From positions 89,223-153,222 of the IMG/VR virus record IMGVR_UViG_3300045988_136221: a DNA stretch of 64,000 bases; one strand, given 5' to 3'. Below the pieces are notes generated by a model. The model did not search any database. It was not told where the DNA came from and worked only from the letters and a program-made list of their open reading frames with translations. Shown here one piece after another: positions 1,106-57,852 of this stretch (the stretch's first letter is position 1; every line of letters starts with the position of its first letter). The position numbers and the translations under genes were made by a program. This stretch comes from a virus.

Positions 1106-1122
1106 ATAAGGTCATGTTTTAA

Positions 1123-1154
1123 ATAGGATTGGTTTATATCAATCCTATTTTTTT
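1123..1154 (+). terminator. Rho-independent terminator after DHH gene
   Basis: Stem ataggatt/aatcctat with 10-nt loop, followed by T7 run. Confidence 0.5.
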
Positions 1155-1759
1155 GTGGTGTGTGGAGAGGTGGATGTAATGGATGAGATAAAATGTTTAT
1201 ATTATGAAGGTTAGGCAAAAAGGTTTATGTGATGAGGGAGAGGTAAAAAAATGGTTTGTGTAATGGGAGAGAGGGGATACCTACCACGAACCTCCCGCCC
1301 CCGAAACGCGTTTTCTCCCCCACGCCCCCTTCGCTGGAAAACCGGAAACGCGTTTTTACCTCAATCCTACAAACTCTCTGATTATCAACCATTTATTTAA
1401 ATTATTGATAATCAATGTATTGTTATAATATATTGATTATAAGCCACTTAAATAAACATATATCCCACATATTAATGTACGCGTATAATACCGTTCTTGT
1501 GTATTTTGTAACTTTCTGATAATCAGATAATAGAATCGAAATTAATACAAGTTAACAAAAAAAAGATAGCATATATATATGTAATACTGAAAAAGGTTGT
1601 ATATTTGCACAGTATTCAAGCGAGAATATTGGTGTTACATAATGAAGCTATATATATACTCCCGTTGGGTGTATTGTATGGTGATACCTTTTGCCTCTTT
1701 GCGTTGTAAAGTGGTAATATATTAGGGTGATATTGTTTAACAAATAAATACATAATGTT

Positions 1760-2774: not shown

Positions 2775-2802
2775 GCATAAAATTCGTATAGGATAGGAAT
2801 GC
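2775..2802 (+). other. hairpin with conserved loop (..TTCGTATAGGATAGG..), member of intergenic hairpin family
   Basis: Stem gcat/atgc around loop aaaattcgtataggatagga; loop resembles the other family members (GTGARGATAGG core); sits directly 5' of the GGTTCGATTCCGG box. Confidence 0.35.
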
Positions 2803-2808
2803 GCGTTC

Positions 2809-2853
2809 GGTTCGATTCCGGAACAACCACTGAATCAAAAATAATATAACAAC
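2809..2853 (+). promoter_or_regulatory. GGTTCGATTCCGG box + A-rich leader, 45 nt upstream of ATG 2854 (copy a)
   Basis: 13-nt GGTTCGATTCCGG (identical to tRNA T-arm consensus) followed by ..CAC.. and AATAATATAACAAC; same element at the same spacing upstream of genes at 4823 and 6070. Confidence 0.45.
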
Positions 2854-3060
2854 ATGGAAAGGAAATTTAAAAATCACTTGGTAGATGTACGCGGATTGTC
2901 CAGGAAAGAAGCCGCAAAGAAACGGAATGCAGCGTATCGTGAATTTATGTTGTATCGTGATATTCACGAAGCATATCATTCCGAAATAGGAAAAGATAAA
3001 TGCAAGCGTAAAACACATACATCACGAACATACGTGAAAGAAAACATAAACAGTATTTAA
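2854..3060 (+). CDS. hypothetical small basic protein (68 aa)
   Basis: ORF track; preceded by conserved box; followed by terminator. Confidence 0.5.
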   Translation: MERKFKNHLVDVRGLSRKEAAKKRNAAYREFMLYRDIHEAYHSEIGKDKCKRKTHTSRTYVKENINSI

Positions 3061-3067
3061 ATAGGAA

Positions 3068-3104
3068 TAGGGTTGTTCTGAATATCGGAACAGCCCTATT
3101 TTCG
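3068..3104 (+). terminator. Rho-independent terminator
   Basis: Stem tagggttgttc/gaacagcccta (one G-U) with loop tgaatatcg, then TTTT. Confidence 0.55.
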
Positions 3105-3261
3105 TATCCTACTCTTTCTATTTACGGGTAGGATATTCTGAGAGTGAACGGAGGATGCGGACAATATTGGTCTAAAACGAAACAAAAATAGTGACATTCG
3201 GATATAACGCCGGTATTTTGTCTATATATAATCGCTCTAATTGGTCTAAAACGAAACTAAA

Positions 3262-3307
3262 GGCGGTTTTCGGACCCAAAATAGGGTGTCGGATGCCGCC
3301 TTTTTCG
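3262..3307 (+). terminator. Rho-independent terminator-like hairpin
   Basis: ggcgg...ccgcc stem with structured interior, followed by TTTTT. Confidence 0.4.
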
Positions 3308-3413
3308 TCTCTATGGAATTGAAATTAGGCTTATTGTATTTTTCTTAAAAATAAGGTATTCTTGATTATCAATTAGTTAGGTTTTATAATATCCGTATTT
3401 TCGGACATACTTA

Positions 3414-3599
3414 TTGTATAATTTTTGTTTTATGTGGTGGTTTTTATTAGTCGCTGACCTATATTTTTTATCGGTTGGTATCCGTTCTATGTTAGAGTAC
3501 GGACCGGATCAGTATAATGTTGTAATGGTCTTTTGTTTTTTGTTATTGGCTATTGTTATAGGTTTGAATATCTATCTTGACAGGAGTAGGAGGCGGTAG
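3414..3599 (+). CDS. small hydrophobic membrane peptide (61 aa), putative
   Basis: ORF track; almost entirely hydrophobic (two predicted TM segments) with basic RRR tail; isolated ORF in otherwise non-coding 1.1-kb region. Confidence 0.35.
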   Translation: MYNFCFMWWFLLVADLYFLSVGIRSMLEYGPDQYNVVMVFCFLLLAIVIGLNIYLDRSRRR

Positions 3600-3786
3600 G
3601 GCGTGGGCTGAAGGTTCTCTATTCTCTCTATGGAATGATATTCTATCCAAACAACCCACACTCCATGCCATAGTATAAGCCTGTAGCGTCCTACTTAAGC
3701 CGGTAGTAGGTGTTAGAGCGTAGGTCCTATGCGGAAAGCGAGAAAGATGGACGGGAGTTGGAGAGGGGGAGAGGGAGGGCACTTCC

Positions 3787-4190
3787 TTCCCACAAAATTC
3801 AACAGATCAGAGTTTTAAAACAGTATTCTGTAGGTTTTCCCACAAAATTCAACAGATCAGAGTTTTAAAACAGTATTCTGTAGGTTTTCCCACAAAATTC
3901 AACAGATCAGAGTTTTAAAACAGTATTCTGTAGGTTTTCCCACAAAATTCAACAGATCAGAGTTTTAAAACAGTATTCTGTAGGTTTTCCCACAAAATTC
4001 AACAGATCAGAGTTTTAAAACAGTATTCTGTAGGTTTTCCCACAAAATTCAACAGATCAGAGTTTTAAAACAGTATTCTGTAGGTTTTCCCACAAAATTC
4101 AACAGATCAGAGTTTTAAAACCGCATAATGTGAGTTCCTTCCCACAAAATTCAACAGATTAGTAGTTTAAAACAGCATTCTATAGGTTAG
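3787..4190 (+). repeat. 50-bp direct tandem repeat array, ~8 units (6 perfect + 2 degenerate)
   Basis: Unit ttcccacaaaattcaacagatcagagttttaaaacagtattctgtaggtt repeats head-to-tail with exact 50-bp period from 3787; units 7-8 diverge (4121 onward). Each unit contains the 10-bp palindrome GTTTTAAAAC. Confidence 0.9.
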
Positions 4191-4219
4191 TAGTAAGTGA
4201 AATGTTTAACAATTAAAAT

Positions 4220-4489
4220 ATGGACAATATGAACGTATATGATTTTGCACCTGATTTAGATTTAAGTAAAGAAGTAGAAGGTTCCATTTTTGGGGTAAGA
4301 GGAATGGAAGGCAGTGATGGTATAGTATATGCTAAGGTAGTTAGCTGTATAGACGTCAAGGATTACAGTTGTGAGAGATGTATTTTTTATGATTGTTATA
4401 AGGATACATGTTCGTTATGGGGTAGTGATAGTTGTATAGATGGGGATTGGTTTTGTAGGTACGAACAGGCTGCCATAGAGGGGGAGTAG
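4220..4489 (+). CDS. Cys-rich small protein (89 aa)
   Basis: ORF track; 10 Cys in C-terminal half; immediately downstream of tandem array. Confidence 0.5.
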   Translation: MDNMNVYDFAPDLDLSKEVEGSIFGVRGMEGSDGIVYAKVVSCIDVKDYSCERCIFYDCYKDTCSLWGSDSCIDGDWFCRYEQAAIEGE

Positions 4490-4500
4490 GCGGCGTCTTG

Positions 4501-4540
4501 GGCTAAGGCCTGCGGTTGTAGGTAGGACGTAGGCCTTAGC
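4501..4540 (+). other. hairpin (10-bp stem ggctaaggcc/ggccttagc), conserved-loop family
   Basis: Loop tgcggttgtaggtaggacgta resembles the family loop; directly after stop of 4220..4489. Confidence 0.45.
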
Positions 4541-4594
4541 AGAACAAGAACAGTTTATTGTGGAACGTAAAAATAAAAAGGAGGAGATAGTGAT

Positions 4595-4675
4595 ATGAAA
4601 AAGGCATTTAAGATATTTTCTATTATGTTCGTCATAGAAATAGTGCTGATAGCTATTTTAGATGCTATGGCGTAA
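4595..4675 (+). CDS. 26-aa hydrophobic micropeptide (MKKAFKIFSIMFVIEIVLIAILDAMA), putative
   Basis: Not in ORF track (too short). Strong SD aaaaaGGAGGagatagtgat 7 nt before ATG 4595; TAA at 4673. Confidence 0.3.
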   Translation: MKKAFKIFSIMFVIEIVLIAILDAMA

Positions 4676-4717
4676 GTAATAAAAATTTCTTCATTAATTT
4701 TCTTATGCTTTAGACAG

Positions 4718-4747
4718 AGTGCCCCCGTCTGCGAAGATCGGAGCACT
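4718..4747 (+). other. hairpin with conserved loop (ccCGTCTGCGAAGATCGG)
   Basis: Stem agtgc/gcact; loop matches family core GTSYGYGARGAT. Confidence 0.4.
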
Positions 4748-4777
4748 TGCTTTATGGGATTCATGGTGAAATAGGTC

Positions 4778-4822
4778 GGTTCGATTCCGGCGATCTCACA
4801 CAATATTAAAAACAAATGAGGT
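4778..4822 (+). promoter_or_regulatory. GGTTCGATTCCGG box + leader, 45 nt upstream of ATG 4823 (copy b)
   Basis: GGTTCGATTCCGGCGATCTCACACAATATTAAAAACAAATGAGGT-ATG; aligns with copies at 2809 and 6027. Confidence 0.45.
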
Positions 4823-5227
4823 ATGTTAAAAGAAGAATTTGAAGACTTTATTAAGAGAGAGGTAAGTGATGAACTTTACAAAGATATAGAGGTAGTGTAT
4901 AATGCTCTGCCTGAATATATGGATAAGTTGTATTTTGCAGACGCTATATTAAAAGATACAGGGAAGACTGTAAATGTTTTGTCGGCTTTAGGAGTACACA
5001 TACGTGAATTGAATAACGCACGCATAATCGAAAAAGAAAAGATTAGATCGTGTGCGTATGATTTGATACATAAGGCTCATGACGAAGATGATTTAACAGC
5101 AAGGGAGATTGCTGTTAAATTGATCGGAGAAAGGGAAACGGTAGCGTATTCTGTAAGGGAGGGTCTGCCATTATGGGAGCATGATAAAAAGTTTATAATA
5201 GAGTTAATGAAGGAGGAAAGAAAATGA
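4823..5227 (+). CDS. hypothetical protein (134 aa)
   Basis: ORF track; ATGA stop/start overlap with next gene. Confidence 0.55.
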   Translation: MLKEEFEDFIKREVSDELYKDIEVVYNALPEYMDKLYFADAILKDTGKTVNVLSALGVHIRELNNARIIEKEKIRSCAYDLIHKAHDEDDLTAREIAVKLIGERETVAYSVREGLPLWEHDKKFIIELMKEERK

Positions 5228-5571
5228 AAGATGGCATTACATTACATCCGGAATATGGATTGAATCCGTCTATAGAAGTCTGCATGATATGTGGCGAAGA
5301 GATGGGGATTGCTTTATTAGGGAATAACATCAAAGGGCAGGCACCGCATCATATATGCACGGGCGGAGTATGTGACAATTGCAAAAAGATAATAGATGAT
5401 GGTGGTTGTTTTATTATCGAGGTTGAAGATGGTTCAGATCAAAAGAATCCGTATCGTACAGGAAGATATTGCGCGATAAAGAAAGGGGTGGCAAAGAAAA
5501 TGTTTGGAAAGGAACATAGCATTGTGTACATGGAAAAGTCTGCATTCAGTCAAATGATACCACAAAAATGA
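5224..5571 (+). CDS. zinc-ribbon-containing protein (115 aa)
   Basis: ORF track; CxxC..C..C..CxxC pattern (CMICGEE...HHICTGGVCDNCKK); AGGAGG SD upstream. Confidence 0.55.
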   Translation: MKDGITLHPEYGLNPSIEVCMICGEEMGIALLGNNIKGQAPHHICTGGVCDNCKKIIDDGGCFIIEVEDGSDQKNPYRTGRYCAIKKGVAKKMFGKEHSIVYMEKSAFSQMIPQK

Positions 5572-6026: not shown

Positions 6027-6069
6027 GGTTCGATTCTGGGCATCTCACAAACAATAAAACAAAAGAGTT
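6027..6069 (+). promoter_or_regulatory. GGTTCGATTCTGG box + leader, 43 nt upstream of ATG 6070 (copy c)
   Basis: GGTTCGATTCTGGGCATCTCACAAACAATAAAACAAAAGAGTT-ATG. Confidence 0.45.
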
Positions 6070-56329: not shown

Positions 56330-57562
56330 TTACTTTAATATAATCGGATGCCTCTTCCCTCTAATGAGTTTAAACTTTTTGCGTGAAACATCTTTTGAAT
56401 TTTCTCCGTTGAAATCCCTGATATTGAAACTCCCTGATTTTCTCCTTCCATAAACAAAACATATTTTATTATTATACAACACTTTATCAAACAACCTAAA
56501 ACCAAAAACCTCAAAAGGAGCTTGATTGTTTTTCTTCTTTCCTCCTTTTAAAATTTTCATTTTATGTATTTGCCTATTATGCCTACGAATTAAACGTTTT
56601 AAATATTGACATCCGATTCGTTTCGCATTAATGTTCTTAGAAATGACAAACGCGTCGGATGTATGGGATTTTTCAATCCCGTATTTAATCCGATTATGTT
56701 TCGTAATGTAACCAAACGTCATAGAAACTCTGTCGTATCTGGATCTCAGTTCTTCATACAACTTCCATTTCATGATCCCCATTACGGCCGCGTCGCGAAG
56801 CGACTTGCCTCTTCTGATTTTTAAATCTATATTACCTTTATGGTATTCTTTGTGACAAGTTTCACATAAGGTAATAAGATTAGAAGGGGAATCACCTCCC
56901 GTTTTTCGGGATTCAAGATGATGGACATTAAGGATCTTATCTTTTGACTTCCCTTTACAATACTGACATTTATGCCCATCCCTTGCTAAAACATACTCCC
57001 TTGTGTTCCAAAACTCAAGTTGATCACCTTCCTGGTATTCTTTACCTAATATTTCAGGATTCTTAATCTTTTGAGTATCAAATTGAGCTACTTCAATAAC
57101 AATACGAGATATTGGTAGTATAGAGCAAATATTTTCAATAACACGAATATGAGCGTCTACTTTGTATTTCACCGAAGGTGCTATCCATCCTGAACGCTTG
57201 CTTTTTATTCTATTATTAAAACGAGGTTTTCTATATCTTAACCTGTTCCGTCTTGTTTTCCGTAGCTCTCTTCTGGTAGACAAAAGATCTACGATATCAT
57301 TTCTAAGAATTACTTCACTGCTGTAAAGTTCTTTGCTTTTCGTTGTAGCTGATAGACCAACGTGTTTGGTCCCAGCATCAACGCCTAACACAATTTCTTG
57401 TTTGTAATCAGATGTGACGTACGTTAATTTGATGGTAAACGGACATAAGCTCACAACAACTGCCTTGTTTTCTTTAAGCAGTCGTCTTACCTTACCATGC
57501 CTTGTTGTAGGCATCATAGGTTTACCATCTATGTCTTGTACGTACACCATATCTACAAACAT
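56330..57562 (-). CDS. iscB: IscB (OMEGA RNA-guided RuvC+HNH nuclease, Cas9 ancestor family)
   Basis: N-terminal PLMP domain (DGKPMMPTTRHGKVRRLL); RuvC-I LGVDAGTKHVGLS; Arg-rich bridge helix TRRELRKTRRNRLRYRKPRFNNR; RuvC-II RIVIEVAQFD; HNH HKCQYC...LNVHHLESRKTGGDSPSNLITLCETCHKEYH; RuvC-III HTSDAFVI. Confidence 0.85.
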   Translation of the reverse strand: MFVDMVYVQDIDGKPMMPTTRHGKVRRLLKENKAVVVSLCPFTIKLTYVTSDYKQEIVLGVDAGTKHVGLSATTKSKELYSSEVILRNDIVDLLSTRRELRKTRRNRLRYRKPRFNNRIKSKRSGWIAPSVKYKVDAHIRVIENICSILPISRIVIEVAQFDTQKIKNPEILGKEYQEGDQLEFWNTREYVLARDGHKCQYCKGKSKDKILNVHHLESRKTGGDSPSNLITLCETCHKEYHKGNIDLKIRRGKSLRDAAVMGIMKWKLYEELRSRYDRVSMTFGYITKHNRIKYGIEKSHTSDAFVISKNINAKRIGCQYLKRLIRRHNRQIHKMKILKGGKKKNNQAPFEVFGFRLFDKVLYNNKICFVYGRRKSGSFNIRDFNGENSKDVSRKKFKLIRGKRHPIILK

Positions 57563-57852
57563 TTTTAATGTTTATTCAACATAAGTCAGGAATATTTCAT
57601 CCTGTTAGTACCCATCGCCAATGTTATAAGAGGTTTTGATGCAAGCAACACTGTTTCGCAAATACACTACTCCTGTTTAATCGCTTGCCTTAGAGCTACG
57701 GACTTGGGCAAACATCCGTAGGTAACTATCTATTCTCAAATAACGTAGCCTTCGTTTCAAGGCTTAGGCTAATATCCGGACCATTTATGGTACATTAAAA
57801 CCTTATAATGAAATTATATTGTTTTAATGTTATTTCGGATATACAAACAAAC
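57563..57852 (-). ncRNA. putative IscB omegaRNA region (5' of iscB)
   Basis: 290-bp ORF-free region immediately upstream of iscB with several stem-loops (e.g. ctacgga..tccgtag; agcctt..aaggct). By established IscB biology the omegaRNA is encoded directly upstream of the ORF. Ends not determinable by eye. Confidence 0.45.

Follow-up and report, generated by a model that had tools for sequence, protein, structure and literature searches.

A copy-number-variable tandem-repeat array with conserved short motifs near the predicted genome start of epsilon crAss-like phages

A 64-kb stretch of DNA (hereafter the window) from an epsilon crAss-like phage close to crAssE-Sib carries a tandem array of 50-bp units which, judged by its sequence and by the corresponding loci of its relatives, is a lineage-specific, slippage-driven and fast-evolving minisatellite. 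The short motifs within the units seem to be held by selection while the number and the arrangement of the units shift fast. The repeat is present in every relative we examined. We tentatively favour the explanation that the array is transcribed together with a block of small genes and acts as a dosage-tunable multivalent binding array, that is as a decoy or regulatory RNA, a reading we regard as possible rather than probable. Roles at the DNA level near the genome end (packaging, entry or a transcription-primed origin) are serious rivals. The readings as origin, partition site or toxin-antitoxin locus do not fit well.

TRF reported a single array at 3787-4188 (period 50, 8.0 copies, 94% matches, score 707), and together with the direct comparison of the units this bears out the original prediction that a real array of about eight 50-bp units is located here. 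Six units are base-perfect, as had been predicted, and the two decayed units, which had been described as terminal, both lie at the 3' end instead of one at each end. The six identical units are a recent expansion; their number may not be the true count, as the assemblies of near-identical phages contain 100-N gaps or contig ends within the array. About 25 of the 80 related IMG/VR contigs terminate inside it. The two 3' units match the conserved 3' anchor units of the relatives. A 10-bp palindrome flanked by caga and tctg had been claimed for each unit. We found GTTTTAAAAC exactly seven times in the window, all within the array, and the ACAGA...TCTGT inverted repeat does flank the palindrome. 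The claim thus holds for seven of the eight units; the eighth carries AGTTTAAAAC, and the palindrome is also disrupted in about a quarter of unique units (GCTTTAAAAC). The 21-nt core TTTAAAACAGYATWMTGTAGG occurs eight times at up to 3 mismatches, compared to 0.03 expected occurrences, and nowhere else in the window. A reading frame through the array can be excluded because of the 50-bp period and the presence of TAA and TAG in every unit. The array is therefore non-coding and, as had also been stated, unique to its locus and co-directional with both neighbours. A database search of the unit, which had been suggested as a check, recovered the loci of relatives. For bacterial genomes it returned chance single hits, and the architecture is neither of the CRISPR type nor that of an RNA anti-CRISPR mini-array, since there are no spacers and the whole 50 bp is repeated.

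BLAST alignments to crAssE-Sib (GenBank OR575929) have junctions which meet at window position 3142/3143, equivalent to the passage from record position 151256 to position 1. The start of OR575929 was set by PhageTerm from virion DNA ('starting point ... predicted', 1.5e-22; PMC11054128); this terminus is one PhageTerm prediction for one relative, and the source paper gives neither packaging type nor direction. The array lies ~640 bp inside this predicted genome start. A rightward block of small genes starts ~0.3 kb past the predicted start, and the array heads this block, occupying its first long non-coding spacer. The genes from the predicted start onward all run inward and the neighbours of the array are all located on the + strand. 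In the 10 ORFs flanking the array no Pfam or PHROG function was detected, and among them there is no Rep, ParA/ParB or DNA-binding domain. Table 1 lists the features of the locus.

Table 1. Features in and around the tandem array, in window coordinates
Feature	Position	Strand	Basis
Terminator-like hairpin AATAGGGTTGTTC...GAACAGCCCTATTTT closing the small ORF 2854-3060	3066..3103	+	Sequence reading; terminator scan did not flag it
Inverted repeat TATCCTAC-N15-GTAGGATA, followed by the 3142/3143 junction (crAssE-Sib predicted start)	3105..3143		BLAST
Two direct copies of ATTGGTCTAAAACGAAAC (3166-3187, 3240-3261)	3166..3261	+	Repeat search; duplicated in crAssE-Sib too
Intrinsic-terminator-like long hairpin with T-run	3260..3306	+	Terminator scan (3283-3302)
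Candidate promoter TTGATT-17-TATAAT (10/12), overlapping palindrome TTGATTATCAA	3362..3390	+	Promoter scan
ORF-A, two-helix hydrophobic peptide, 55 aa (61 aa from TTG 3414)	3432..3599	+	Conserved; CDS in crAssE-Sib
Conserved non-coding leader	3593..3749	+	Alignment, RNAalifold, pair counts
Polypurine (GGGAGA)n tract ending GGGCAC	3750..3782	+	Sequence and alignment
Six identical 50-bp units	3787..4086	+	50/50 identity, direct comparison
Two older diverged units: seventh (4087-4136, 44/50 identity), eighth (52 bp, shifted by a 2-bp insertion, more diverged)	4087..4188	+	TRF and direct comparison
ORF-B, Cys-rich, 86 aa, acidic (pI 4.08), 7 Cys	4229..4489	+	Conserved start
9-bp perfect hairpin GCTAAGGCC-N21-GGCCTTAGC past the ORF-B stop, no T-run	4502..4540	+	Sequence reading

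The order ORF-A, leader of ~190 nt, polypurine tract, array and ORF-B was common to all resolved relatives, as checked at 40 IMG/VR loci with full flanks, 10 loci without the exact core and 5 ENA/Logan loci. The hydrophobic ORF that had been reported at 3414-3599 is present, with 3432 as an alternative start. The Cys-rich gene is also there, but its start is more likely ATG 4229, which is conserved across the relatives, than 4220 as assumed before (89 aa). Neither ORF-A nor ORF-B showed a match in Pfam, PHROG or PADLOC, in agreement with the earlier statement that the neighbours do not resemble ToxN. For ORF-B we found 502 homologues, restricted to the clade, with an identity of at least 73% among the 120 matches listed; ORF-B and the next gene are essentially without homologues outside the clade in GenBank phages. 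The AlphaFold2 model of ORF-B had a pLDDT of 49.7 and was unusable. We rejected ORF-B as a binding partner of the array, as this acidic protein is unlikely to bind nucleic acid. Upstream of ORF-A, the copies of ATTGGTCTAAAACGAAAC are found at positions 27-44 and 101-118 in one relative (L001), and the sequence of the candidate promoter is kept in this and two further relatives (L045, L277); the promoter-like matches in the scan are in total at chance level and the site is a candidate only. The first ~48 nt of the leader are almost invariant in 59 distinct sequences, and the indels in the leader are not multiples of three. The purine-rich stretch which had been noted in front of the array is present as well. 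It forms a mirror repeat rich in G-runs on the non-template strand, and the segment from the leader anchor to GGGCAC measures 35-67 nt in the relatives (43 nt in 79 of 102 loci).

The array itself varied widely. Over 67 distinct resolved alleles the spacer spanned 116-554 bp with 1-10 copies of box A (see below for the boxes), and the relatives had from 1 to 10 or more units. Within the clade (at least 85% identity) we detected periods of 17, 21-23, 44, 50-52 and 101 bp. In at least five alleles (L027, L115, L131, L137 and L151) different short segments containing box A were amplified with periods of 17-23 bp, and we also observed higher-order repeats, sub-unit amplifications of box A only, a scrambled mosaic (L034) and the amplification of an arbitrary sub-segment (L136). 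Two sister samples (L279 and L280) differ by one unit while their ORF-B proteins are identical. One assembled relative (L051) has a single complete unit, thus multiplicity is not essential. All 102 loci with both anchors had at least one box A, and there was no resolved allele without the element. Head-to-tail non-coding units with copy-number polymorphism between close relatives are what characterises a minisatellite or VNTR. The literature we consulted on crAss repeats, iterons and non-coding regions contained no description of the array, and the crAssE-Sib paper (PMC11054128) is silent on it. A second, unrelated tandem repeat 2.6 kb upstream showed similar behaviour, as it is plastic and associated with contig ends.

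This variation bears on the argument by which an iteron, centromere or operator architecture had been proposed. The argument relied on the palindrome and on a 50-bp period that would bring it to the same face of the helix in each unit. The phasing is allele-specific, with periods of 17-101 bp in the relatives, and both features are specific to the allele in the window, so the argument is not supported.

Each unit is composed of box A (CAAAATT), a variable block (CAACAGAT), box B (CAG.G.TTTAAAACAG) and box C (AT..TGTAG). Across 137 unique units CAAAATT, CAG.G, TTTAAAACAG, AT and TGTAG were near-invariant, and positions 16, 18-23, 27, 29, 40, 43-44 and 50-51 varied freely. Position 7 was A in 104 of 136 units and C in 31 of 136 (the minority CCCACA variant), position 29 was C in 36 of 135 units and some units contained an extra T. 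The right half of the palindrome, AAAACAG, was invariant, whereas the left half of GTTTTAAAAC varied. The same block-wise conservation recurred in units from loci which were retrieved via ORF-B and delimited by box A alone. As this conservation is block-wise within old, mutually diverged units, homogenisation of whole units does not account for it. The alignments point to a unit that is a directional string of short linear motifs, neither a dyad nor an RNA fold.

Transcription of the array on the + strand is plausible from the orientation of the genes and the absence of a terminator. The call at 3283-3302 is the sole + strand terminator call in 2800-5000; the terminator scan found no + strand terminator-like site between 3306 and 5000 and hence none from ORF-A to ORF-B. 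A transcribed decoy or sponge RNA, one of the options raised originally, stays viable because the array is non-coding, unique to its locus and co-directional, with no terminator before the Cys-rich gene. We found no base-pair covariation or pseudoknot in the units by mutual information across the 137 unique units. The only signal was linkage within the variable block, which is explained by unit haplotypes. An RNA hairpin over the unit junctions (ATTCTGTAGG-TTTT-CCCACAAAAT, 10 bp) was rejected: it would form better as - strand RNA, and it is broken without compensation in most units (ATAATG variants). In the leader, the pairing of a G-rich/C-rich 5' helix is kept solely via G-C to G-U changes. 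Helices in the leader would be possible only as + strand RNA because of the many G-U pairs and because only C-to-U is tolerated opposite G. The leader shows one-sided changes only, and shuffle controls do not set them apart. Rfam had no match at the locus, neither at the gathering threshold nor at E<=5.

In the explanation we favour, the leader, the polypurine tract and the array would be transcribed on the + strand alongside ORF-A and ORF-B. The repeated single-stranded motifs, chiefly box A CCAACAAAAUUCAA, could then form a multivalent platform that titrates or recruits one sequence-specific factor, for which an RNA-binding protein or a nuclease of the host and a regulator of the phage are candidates. 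Such a platform might serve as a decoy or sponge, or as a regulatory 5' leader for ORF-B. Its dose would be set by replication slippage; the slippage is evident from the allele spectrum, and its adaptive value is presumed. The 64-kb window has the motif at this locus alone, which fits a dedicated element better than a general class of promoters or operators. A more specific version strikes us as doubtful: an early-expressed decoy RNA of tunable copy number would sequester an RNA-binding protein or a defence nuclease of Bacteroidales, and slippage alleles would be selected in an arms race. This specific version would be in keeping with some genes of the surroundings. RNA-repair and tRNA genes (a DHH phosphodiesterase, a polynucleotide kinase-phosphatase and tRNAs) are located upstream of the predicted genome start at a distance of 2-6 kb from the array, and a CCA-adding-type nucleotidyltransferase is encoded ~13 kb downstream. 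An exact-pattern scan of 185,579 bacterial and archaeal species genomes for the unit core gave chance-level single hits and a mis-binned phage contig (L223). As a related repeat is absent from bacterial genomes, nothing indicates what the array would mimic, and the paper on the CLIP motif of RbpB offers no short motif for comparison. The boxes, their directionality, the variation in dosage and the uniqueness fit a DNA-binding array equally well, and the closeness to the PhageTerm start speaks just as much for the array acting as DNA at the end of the genome.

Among the DNA-level roles we first consider a regulatory array for the early operon or for ORF-B, which could consist of operators bound by a DNA-binding protein of phage or host, or of tandem promoters for a virion or host RNA polymerase. 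It could also be a contingency locus in which three hypermutable tracts (the polypurine tract, the 50-bp repeat and a poly-T run) tune the expression of ORF-B. The array is located 40-90 bp upstream of ORF-B in all relatives, its conserved directional blocks at fixed spacing are promoter-like, and the lengths of the polypurine tract and of the poly-T run between the array and ORF-B (7 to 11 T among the relatives) also vary. Tandem strong promoters at an entering end are known from T7 (A1-A3). However, the motif occurs nowhere else in the 64 kb, so it does not belong to a promoter or operator class of other genes, and the 10 neighbouring ORFs lack a DNA-binding domain. Neither the Bacteroides -33/-7 nor the sigma-70 consensus is matched on the + strand. 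Box A read as its reverse complement, on the - strand, looks like TAnnTTTG, yet each 'n' position is invariant and conservation of the key T is only 52%. A Bacteroides -7 box on that strand (CAAAATTA, reverse complement TAATTTTG) was rejected for this wrong conservation pattern and the missing -33 TTTG. For the early promoters of the crAss-like virion RNA polymerase there is no known motif with which the units could be compared. Two further candidates were discarded: an IHF-like ATCAG-N4-TTA falls within the variable block, and the resemblance of the unit to dif/Xer sites is only partial. Overall we consider a regulatory DNA array unlikely.

The array might also be a DNA cis element of the genome end, at which packaging is initiated (small terminase, with a pac or terminal cut) or the entry of the leading DNA end is controlled. 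The PhageTerm start (p = 1.5e-22) at ~640 bp, the genes running inward from it and the uniqueness of the element in the window, as is necessary for a pac site, are in line with this. Direct repeats are typical substrates of multimeric small terminases, as in the pac sites of SPP1, P22 and P1, and by analogy the direct repeats of the array might be such a substrate. On the other hand, packaging type and direction are absent from the crAssE-Sib paper and the terminase genes are ~20 kb from the array. The ends of related contigs pile up at the two tandem-repeat arrays and not at 3143. Furthermore, unit number, period and composition vary widely at 85% identity and above, which is unusual for an assembly site that depends on geometry. 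We thus regard a role in packaging or entry as quite improbable.

For a replication origin, the units would be iteron-like initiator sites, or the origin would be transcription-primed, with an R-loop primer stabilised by the polypurine tract and repeats that load replication proteins. The locus has the classical look, with tandem repeats in a non-coding region heading the early genes and unique in the window, and the mirror-repeat polypurine tract with its G-runs lies directly upstream on the non-template strand. At G-rich polypurine tracts RNA-DNA hybrids tend to persist, ColE1 RNA II and mitochondrial CSBII being examples. The iteron-type origin of the original prediction found no support, as a nearby Rep gene, an adjoining AT-rich unwinding stretch, a skew inflection and fixed phasing are all missing. 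The GC content is 32% in the array and 30-50% when the flanks are included. Only one stretch is strongly AT-rich (23% GC, 1401-1600); it belongs to a separate non-coding region and does not adjoin the array. GC skew has no inflection at the array; strand and skew switch ~18 kb upstream of it and at ~46.7 kb of the window, and the skew follows transcription in this genome. Initiator-type genes are not adjacent, and in the crAssE-Sib annotation the genes for a replication factor, primase and DnaB are more than 20 kb from the array. The spacing of the repeats is not kept among the relatives. A DnaA box (TTTCCCACA compared to TTWTNCACA) was rejected, as it is confined to the minority CCCACA variant (31 of 136 units). 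An origin, in either form, is in our view just as improbable as a packaging site.

The array may have no sequence-specific function at all and be a tolerated, selfishly expanding minisatellite whose deletion is merely not advantageous. The extreme plasticity, with mosaics and arbitrarily amplified sub-segments (L034, L136), the existence of a one-unit allele and the similar behaviour of the unrelated repeat 2.6 kb upstream would agree with this. Homogenisation of whole units, however, cannot yield the block-wise conservation in old, diverged units, and all 102 of 102 loci with both anchors keep at least one box A in phage genomes that are under pressure for compactness. We see only a small chance that this explanation is correct.

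We consider it very improbable that the array belongs to a type III toxin-antitoxin locus or imitates, after processing into 50-nt units, a type III antitoxin of the host. The immediate succession of a tandem repeat and a small co-directional gene, together with a copy-number behaviour resembling that of the PhiTE pseudo-ToxI, suggests it, and the A-rich AAAAU motifs in the units, which we take to resemble ToxN-type cleavage sites, were counted in its favour. The likeness raised in the original prediction fails on the toxin, on the search for RNA families and on structure covariation: ORF-B and its neighbours give no ToxN, AbiQ, CptN or TenpN signal in Pfam, PHROGs or PADLOC, there is no Rfam match at E<=5 and no covariation of pseudoknot or helix. 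In addition, the terminator between repeat and gene is absent, and the unit core has no counterpart in the 185,579 genomes save mis-binned phage contigs. Membership in the type III family is largely refuted.

The F sopC site consists of 43-bp tandem repeats, each with an inverted repeat, of which a single unit suffices. A partition (centromere-like) site, one of the options raised originally, would resemble sopC in architecture and, if it served a carrier state of the plasmid type, suit the phage-plasmid lifestyle proposed for the prototypic crAssphage (PMC10983915), but it is extremely improbable, as the dyad is not conserved and no ParA/ParB is found near the array or annotated in OR575929 1-30000 and 101300-151256 (~80 kb, which covers all flanks of the array).

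Epsilon crAss-like phages, although uncultured, are widespread in the human gut, and almost all genes around the locus lack an annotation. A non-coding cassette that is conserved and at the same time hypervariable, and that heads the early region by the predicted genome end, provides a handle on the start of infection, packaging and the evasion of defence. The array also accounts for the fact that assemblies of these genomes break or circularise there, and repeat counts from short reads are unreliable at this position. With long reads it is a natural VNTR marker for tracking phage strains across people and time. If the array were indeed a decoy RNA, RNA-based anti-defence would extend to Bacteroidales phages, and it would be a second, structurally unrelated case of the principle of the PhiTE pseudo-ToxI, in a highly abundant group of gut phages.

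Several known systems can be compared to the array. It shares with iteron origins and centromere arrays (lambda ori, plasmid iterons, F sopC and the EBV family of repeats) the direct repeats with a short dyad at a unique non-coding locus, and in those systems the copy number may also vary and one unit may suffice. In contrast to them, the 50-bp units have a directional core and are spaced at 17-101 bp among close relatives, and the array lacks an initiator or partition gene, an AT-rich unwinding stretch and a change in skew. Like the concatemer-junction repeats and A1-A3 promoters of T7 and the pac sites of SPP1 and P1, the array has a unique locus where the early genes begin, at most about 1 kb from a predicted terminus; unlike these ends it matches no promoter consensus and is far more variable than known pac sites. 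CsrB/RsmZ (GGA repeats) and CrcZ (CA motifs) similarly present many copies of a short motif and act by dosage within one transcript, but these are defined small RNAs, each with a promoter and a terminator of its own, in which hairpin loops carry the motifs. Bacteroidales lack CsrA and Hfq (PMC13370968). In PhiTE, a ~142-kb Pectobacterium phage, the non-coding pseudo-ToxI repeat expands from 1.5 to 4.5-5.5 copies by slippage and neutralises ToxN (PMC3475682). Both repeats are intergenic, non-coding and tandem and change copy number by slippage, and that of PhiTE is transcribed during infection with a dosage effect. The PhiTE unit of 36 nt folds into a pseudoknot and is similar to the host ToxI, whereas the units of 50-52 nt described here show no structure covariation, Rfam hit or host counterpart. 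The crAss-like phage phi14:2 produces early long non-coding RNAs of unknown function, abundant already at the earliest time point, from its g004-g006 intergenic regions (bioRxiv 10.1101/2020.03.07.982082). This phage belongs to the same order, and the regions in question are, like the spacer with the array, long non-coding stretches between small rightward genes at the start of the gene order. They contain no comparable tandem array and share no sequence with ours, for which transcription is inferred.

The original prediction described the tandem array accurately: TRF reports a period of 50, 8.0 copies and a score of 707, and a direct comparison of the units shows that units 1-6 (3787-4086) are identical base for base. 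Two decayed units had also been predicted as a terminal pair. Units 7 (44/50 positions matching the perfect units) and 8 (a 2-bp insertion and further changes) are indeed diverged, but both lie at the 3' end. The 50-bp unit contains TAA and TAG and is thus non-coding. Within the 64-kb window GTTTTAAAAC occurs seven times, always inside the array, and the 21-nt core of the unit is found eight times at ≤3 mismatches compared to an expected 0.03. The six perfect copies are a recent expansion and their true number is uncertain, as in phages with a 99%-identical ORF-B the array is interrupted by 100-N scaffold gaps or contig ends. Overall ∼25 of 80 related contigs terminate within the array. The pentamer GTAGG is locally enriched: 20 of its 53 + strand occurrences in the 64 kb fall into ∼1 kb, nine of these 20 outside the six identical units and several in G-rich segments directly 3' of the ORF-A and ORF-B stop codons.

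Coordinates of the cassette and of other elements in the window
Feature	Position	Strand	Description
Non-coding region	1106-1759		650 bp; two copies of GAAACGCGTTTT in a C-rich segment
Second tandem repeat, same region	1190-1274		28-31-bp unit (AAAAGGTTTATGTGATGAGGGAGAGG), unrelated to the array
TTGATWATCAA palindromes	1378, 1405, 1433; also 3362
Low-GC stretch, same region	1401-1600		23% GC
tRNA T-arm-like sequence	2809-2846, 4778-4815, 6027-6064	+	GGTTCGATTCCGG...ATCTCACA
Inverted repeat	region 3105-3261		TATCCTAC-N15-GTAGGATA
PhageTerm-predicted start	3142|3143		7 nt past the inverted repeat
Direct copies of ATTGGTCTAAAACGAAAC	3166, 3240		just past the predicted start
Terminator call	3283-3302	+	sole + strand call in 2800-5000; upstream of ORF-A
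12-mer TCTCTATGGAAT	3308-3319, 3625-3636	+	exactly twice in window
Conserved TTGATT-17-TATAAT	3362-3390		after the terminator
Cassette 1, ORF-A	3432-3599		55-aa peptide, two hydrophobic helices
Cassette 2, leader			non-coding, ∼190 nt
Cassette 3, polypurine tract			(GGGAGA)n, ends in GGGCAC
GTAGG enrichment	3586-4529	+
Cassette 4, repeat array	3787-4188	+
Cassette 5, spacer, then ORF-B	4229-4489		40-90 bp, then ATGAACGTATATGA (ORF-B start, 4229); 86 aa, pI 4.08, 7 Cys
ORF-B 3' end	4438-4467	+	codes ...DGDWFCRYEQ
RRXRR + HNH ORF	56330-57562	-	410 aa
HEARO/omega RNA	57604-57842	-	complete; Rfam RF02033, 101.8 bits

An exact-pattern scan of IMG/VR with the core returned 89 stretches and a protein-based scan with ORF-B 176 loci. 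The cassette order was the same in all 40 loci with full flanks, and we also found it in 10 loci without the exact core and in five ENA/Logan loci. For ORF-A, ORF-B and eight neighbouring ORFs, Pfam, PHROGs and PADLOC gave no informative family; apart from two PHROGs without assigned function, the sole match was a marginal one in PADLOC (E = 0.005). The AlphaFold2 model of ORF-B was unusable (pLDDT 49.7). Over 30 nt, the 3' end of ORF-B shares 80% identity with 5300-5329, a segment inside ORF 5224-5571 (+ strand), and the two small early proteins may have a module in common. In many relatives (among loci L003-L089) a run of 7-11 T separates the last unit from ORF-B (∼4190-4228 equivalent); it is absent from the window allele and forms the third length-variable tract of the spacer, beside the polypurine tract and the array. 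The two copies of TCTCTATGGAAT, one after the upstream terminator and the other within the conserved leader, are both kept in relatives.

From 137 unique units we obtained the consensus TCTTCCAACAAAATTAAGAATATCAGCGTTTTAAAACAGCATTCTGTAGGTT, with near-invariant blocks CAAAATT (box A, 9-15), CAG.G (24-28), TTTAAAACAG (30-39), AT (41-42) and TGTAG (45-49), whereas positions 16, 18-23, 27, 29, 40, 43-44 and 50-51 vary freely. The pattern persists in units from loci fetched with ORF-B and delimited by box A alone, a set from which the ascertainment bias is removed. Conservation by blocks, in units that are old and have diverged from one another, points to selection for the boxes rather than to homogenisation alone. 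The palindrome emphasised in the original prediction is not conserved as such: position 29 is C in 36/135 units and only the right half is invariant. We detected no base-pair covariation in the unit, column-pair mutual information reflecting linkage within the variable block only, and the unit-junction hairpin is disrupted in most variants. We thus interpret the unit as a directional string of linear motifs with no fold, which would be read as dsDNA or ssRNA.

In the 67 distinct resolved alleles ORF-B lies 116-554 bp from the polypurine tract (median 240); at 446 bp, the window has one of the five longest spacings. Alleles carry 1-10 copies of box A (mode 3), the shortest consisting of one complete unit and a degenerate remnant. 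The window, L015 and L019 have multiplied whole 50-52-bp units; other loci show a 101-bp higher-order repeat (L045), shortened 44-bp units (L078) or scrambled mosaics (L034). At least five different alleles (L027, L115, L131, L137, L151) amplify only a 17-23-bp piece with box A, CCAACAAAATTCAA. In a sister-sample pair with identical ORF-B protein the arrays are exactly one unit apart. The second tandem repeat is hypervariable too, with 6 of 80 related contigs beginning inside it.

By BLAST the window is 85-90% identical to crAssE-Sib (GenBank OR575929), an epsilon crAss-like phage whose 151-kb genome comes from a human virome assembly. The authors who described it rotated the pseudo-circular contig to a PhageTerm-predicted start (p = 1.5e-22; PMC11054128). 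That paper makes no mention of the repeat, packaging type or packaging direction. Two BLAST segments join at this start, which places the array ∼640 bp inside the predicted genome end. The ATTGGTCTAAAACGAAAC sequence is duplicated in crAssE-Sib as well. The array lies inside a ∼58-kb arm of + strand genes, strand switches occurring ∼18 kb upstream of it and at 46.7 kb, and all genes to its right are oriented inward. Upstream we find + strand genes for a helicase, ThyA, RuvC, a sliding clamp, SSB, tRNAs, polynucleotide kinase and DHH phosphodiesterase, and downstream dozens of small unknown ORFs followed by a nucleotidyltransferase, a replication factor, primase and DnaB. In sum, the array is a minisatellite specific to this clade, hypervariable although under selection, and it occupies the first non-coding spacer in the block of early genes, close to where the genome is predicted to end.

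Each T-arm-like copy lies in an intergenic gap just 5' of a + strand ORF and folds as an acceptor/T-arm minihelix-like hairpin; neither ARAGORN nor Rfam calls a tRNA there. The copies may act as processing signals or derive from former tRNAs, and the same phage also encodes polynucleotide kinase, DHH phosphodiesterase and a CCA-adding-type nucleotidyltransferase. The HEARO/omega RNA with the RRXRR/HNH ORF directly downstream makes up an IscB-type RNA-guided nuclease element within the phage genome (56330-57842, - strand).

No terminator-like site was found between ORF-A, the array and ORF-B on the + strand, so read-through across all three is to be expected by default. Indels rule out a coding leader; its mean column identity is 83% and its first 48 nt are almost invariant. 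In the RNAalifold prediction, the G-rich 5' end of the leader pairs with a segment rich in C and U, in which every change is C-to-U opposite G; the predicted helices can form in + strand RNA only. As there are no two-sided changes, the controls do not separate this pairing from chance.

The reading we rank first, if only tentatively, is that the array would be transcribed as a dosage-tunable multivalent motif array whose transcript would serve as a decoy or regulatory RNA. This part of the original interpretation fares best, while origin, partition and type III membership fit poorly. We consider it rather unlikely that the array is a regulatory DNA array or contingency locus for early genes or ORF-B, as a promoter or operator class is at odds with the absence of the motif from the rest of the window. 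The unit matches neither the Bacteroides nor the sigma-70 promoter consensus on either strand. That the array serves packaging or DNA entry at the end of the genome is unlikely: the nearby PhageTerm start and the uniqueness of the motif in the window favour this role, but the array is extremely plastic, the terminase genes are distant and contig ends do not pile up at 3143. Just as unlikely is an origin of replication. Just 5' of the array, the non-template strand carries a G-rich polypurine tract that forms a mirror repeat and would suit a transcription-primed origin; the proposed iteron architecture, however, fails on unit phasing (not kept among relatives), on the lack of an adjoining AT-rich unwinding stretch (array 32% GC) or GC-skew inflection, and on replication genes >20 kb away with no Rep genes nearby. 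Region 1106-1759 resembles a classical origin or regulatory region more closely than the array does. Slightly less likely again is a tolerated minisatellite without sequence-specific function. A type III toxin-antitoxin locus or antitoxin mimic is very improbable: as predicted, none of the ten proteins is ToxN-like in Pfam, PHROGs or PADLOC, the repeat-to-gene terminator is missing, we found neither Rfam similarity nor pseudoknot covariation, and among 185,579 species genomes the core turns up only as chance single matches and in a mis-binned phage contig. A partition (centromere-like) site, with no Par genes nearby, is hardly to be expected.

For the decoy or regulatory RNA there are two points of comparison. 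The crAss-like phage phi14:2 produces abundant early non-coding RNAs from long intergenic regions among its first genes (bioRxiv 10.1101/2020.03.07.982082), although these regions hold no array similar to that of the window. The expansion of pseudo-ToxI in phage PhiTE (PMC3475682) is analogous in principle.
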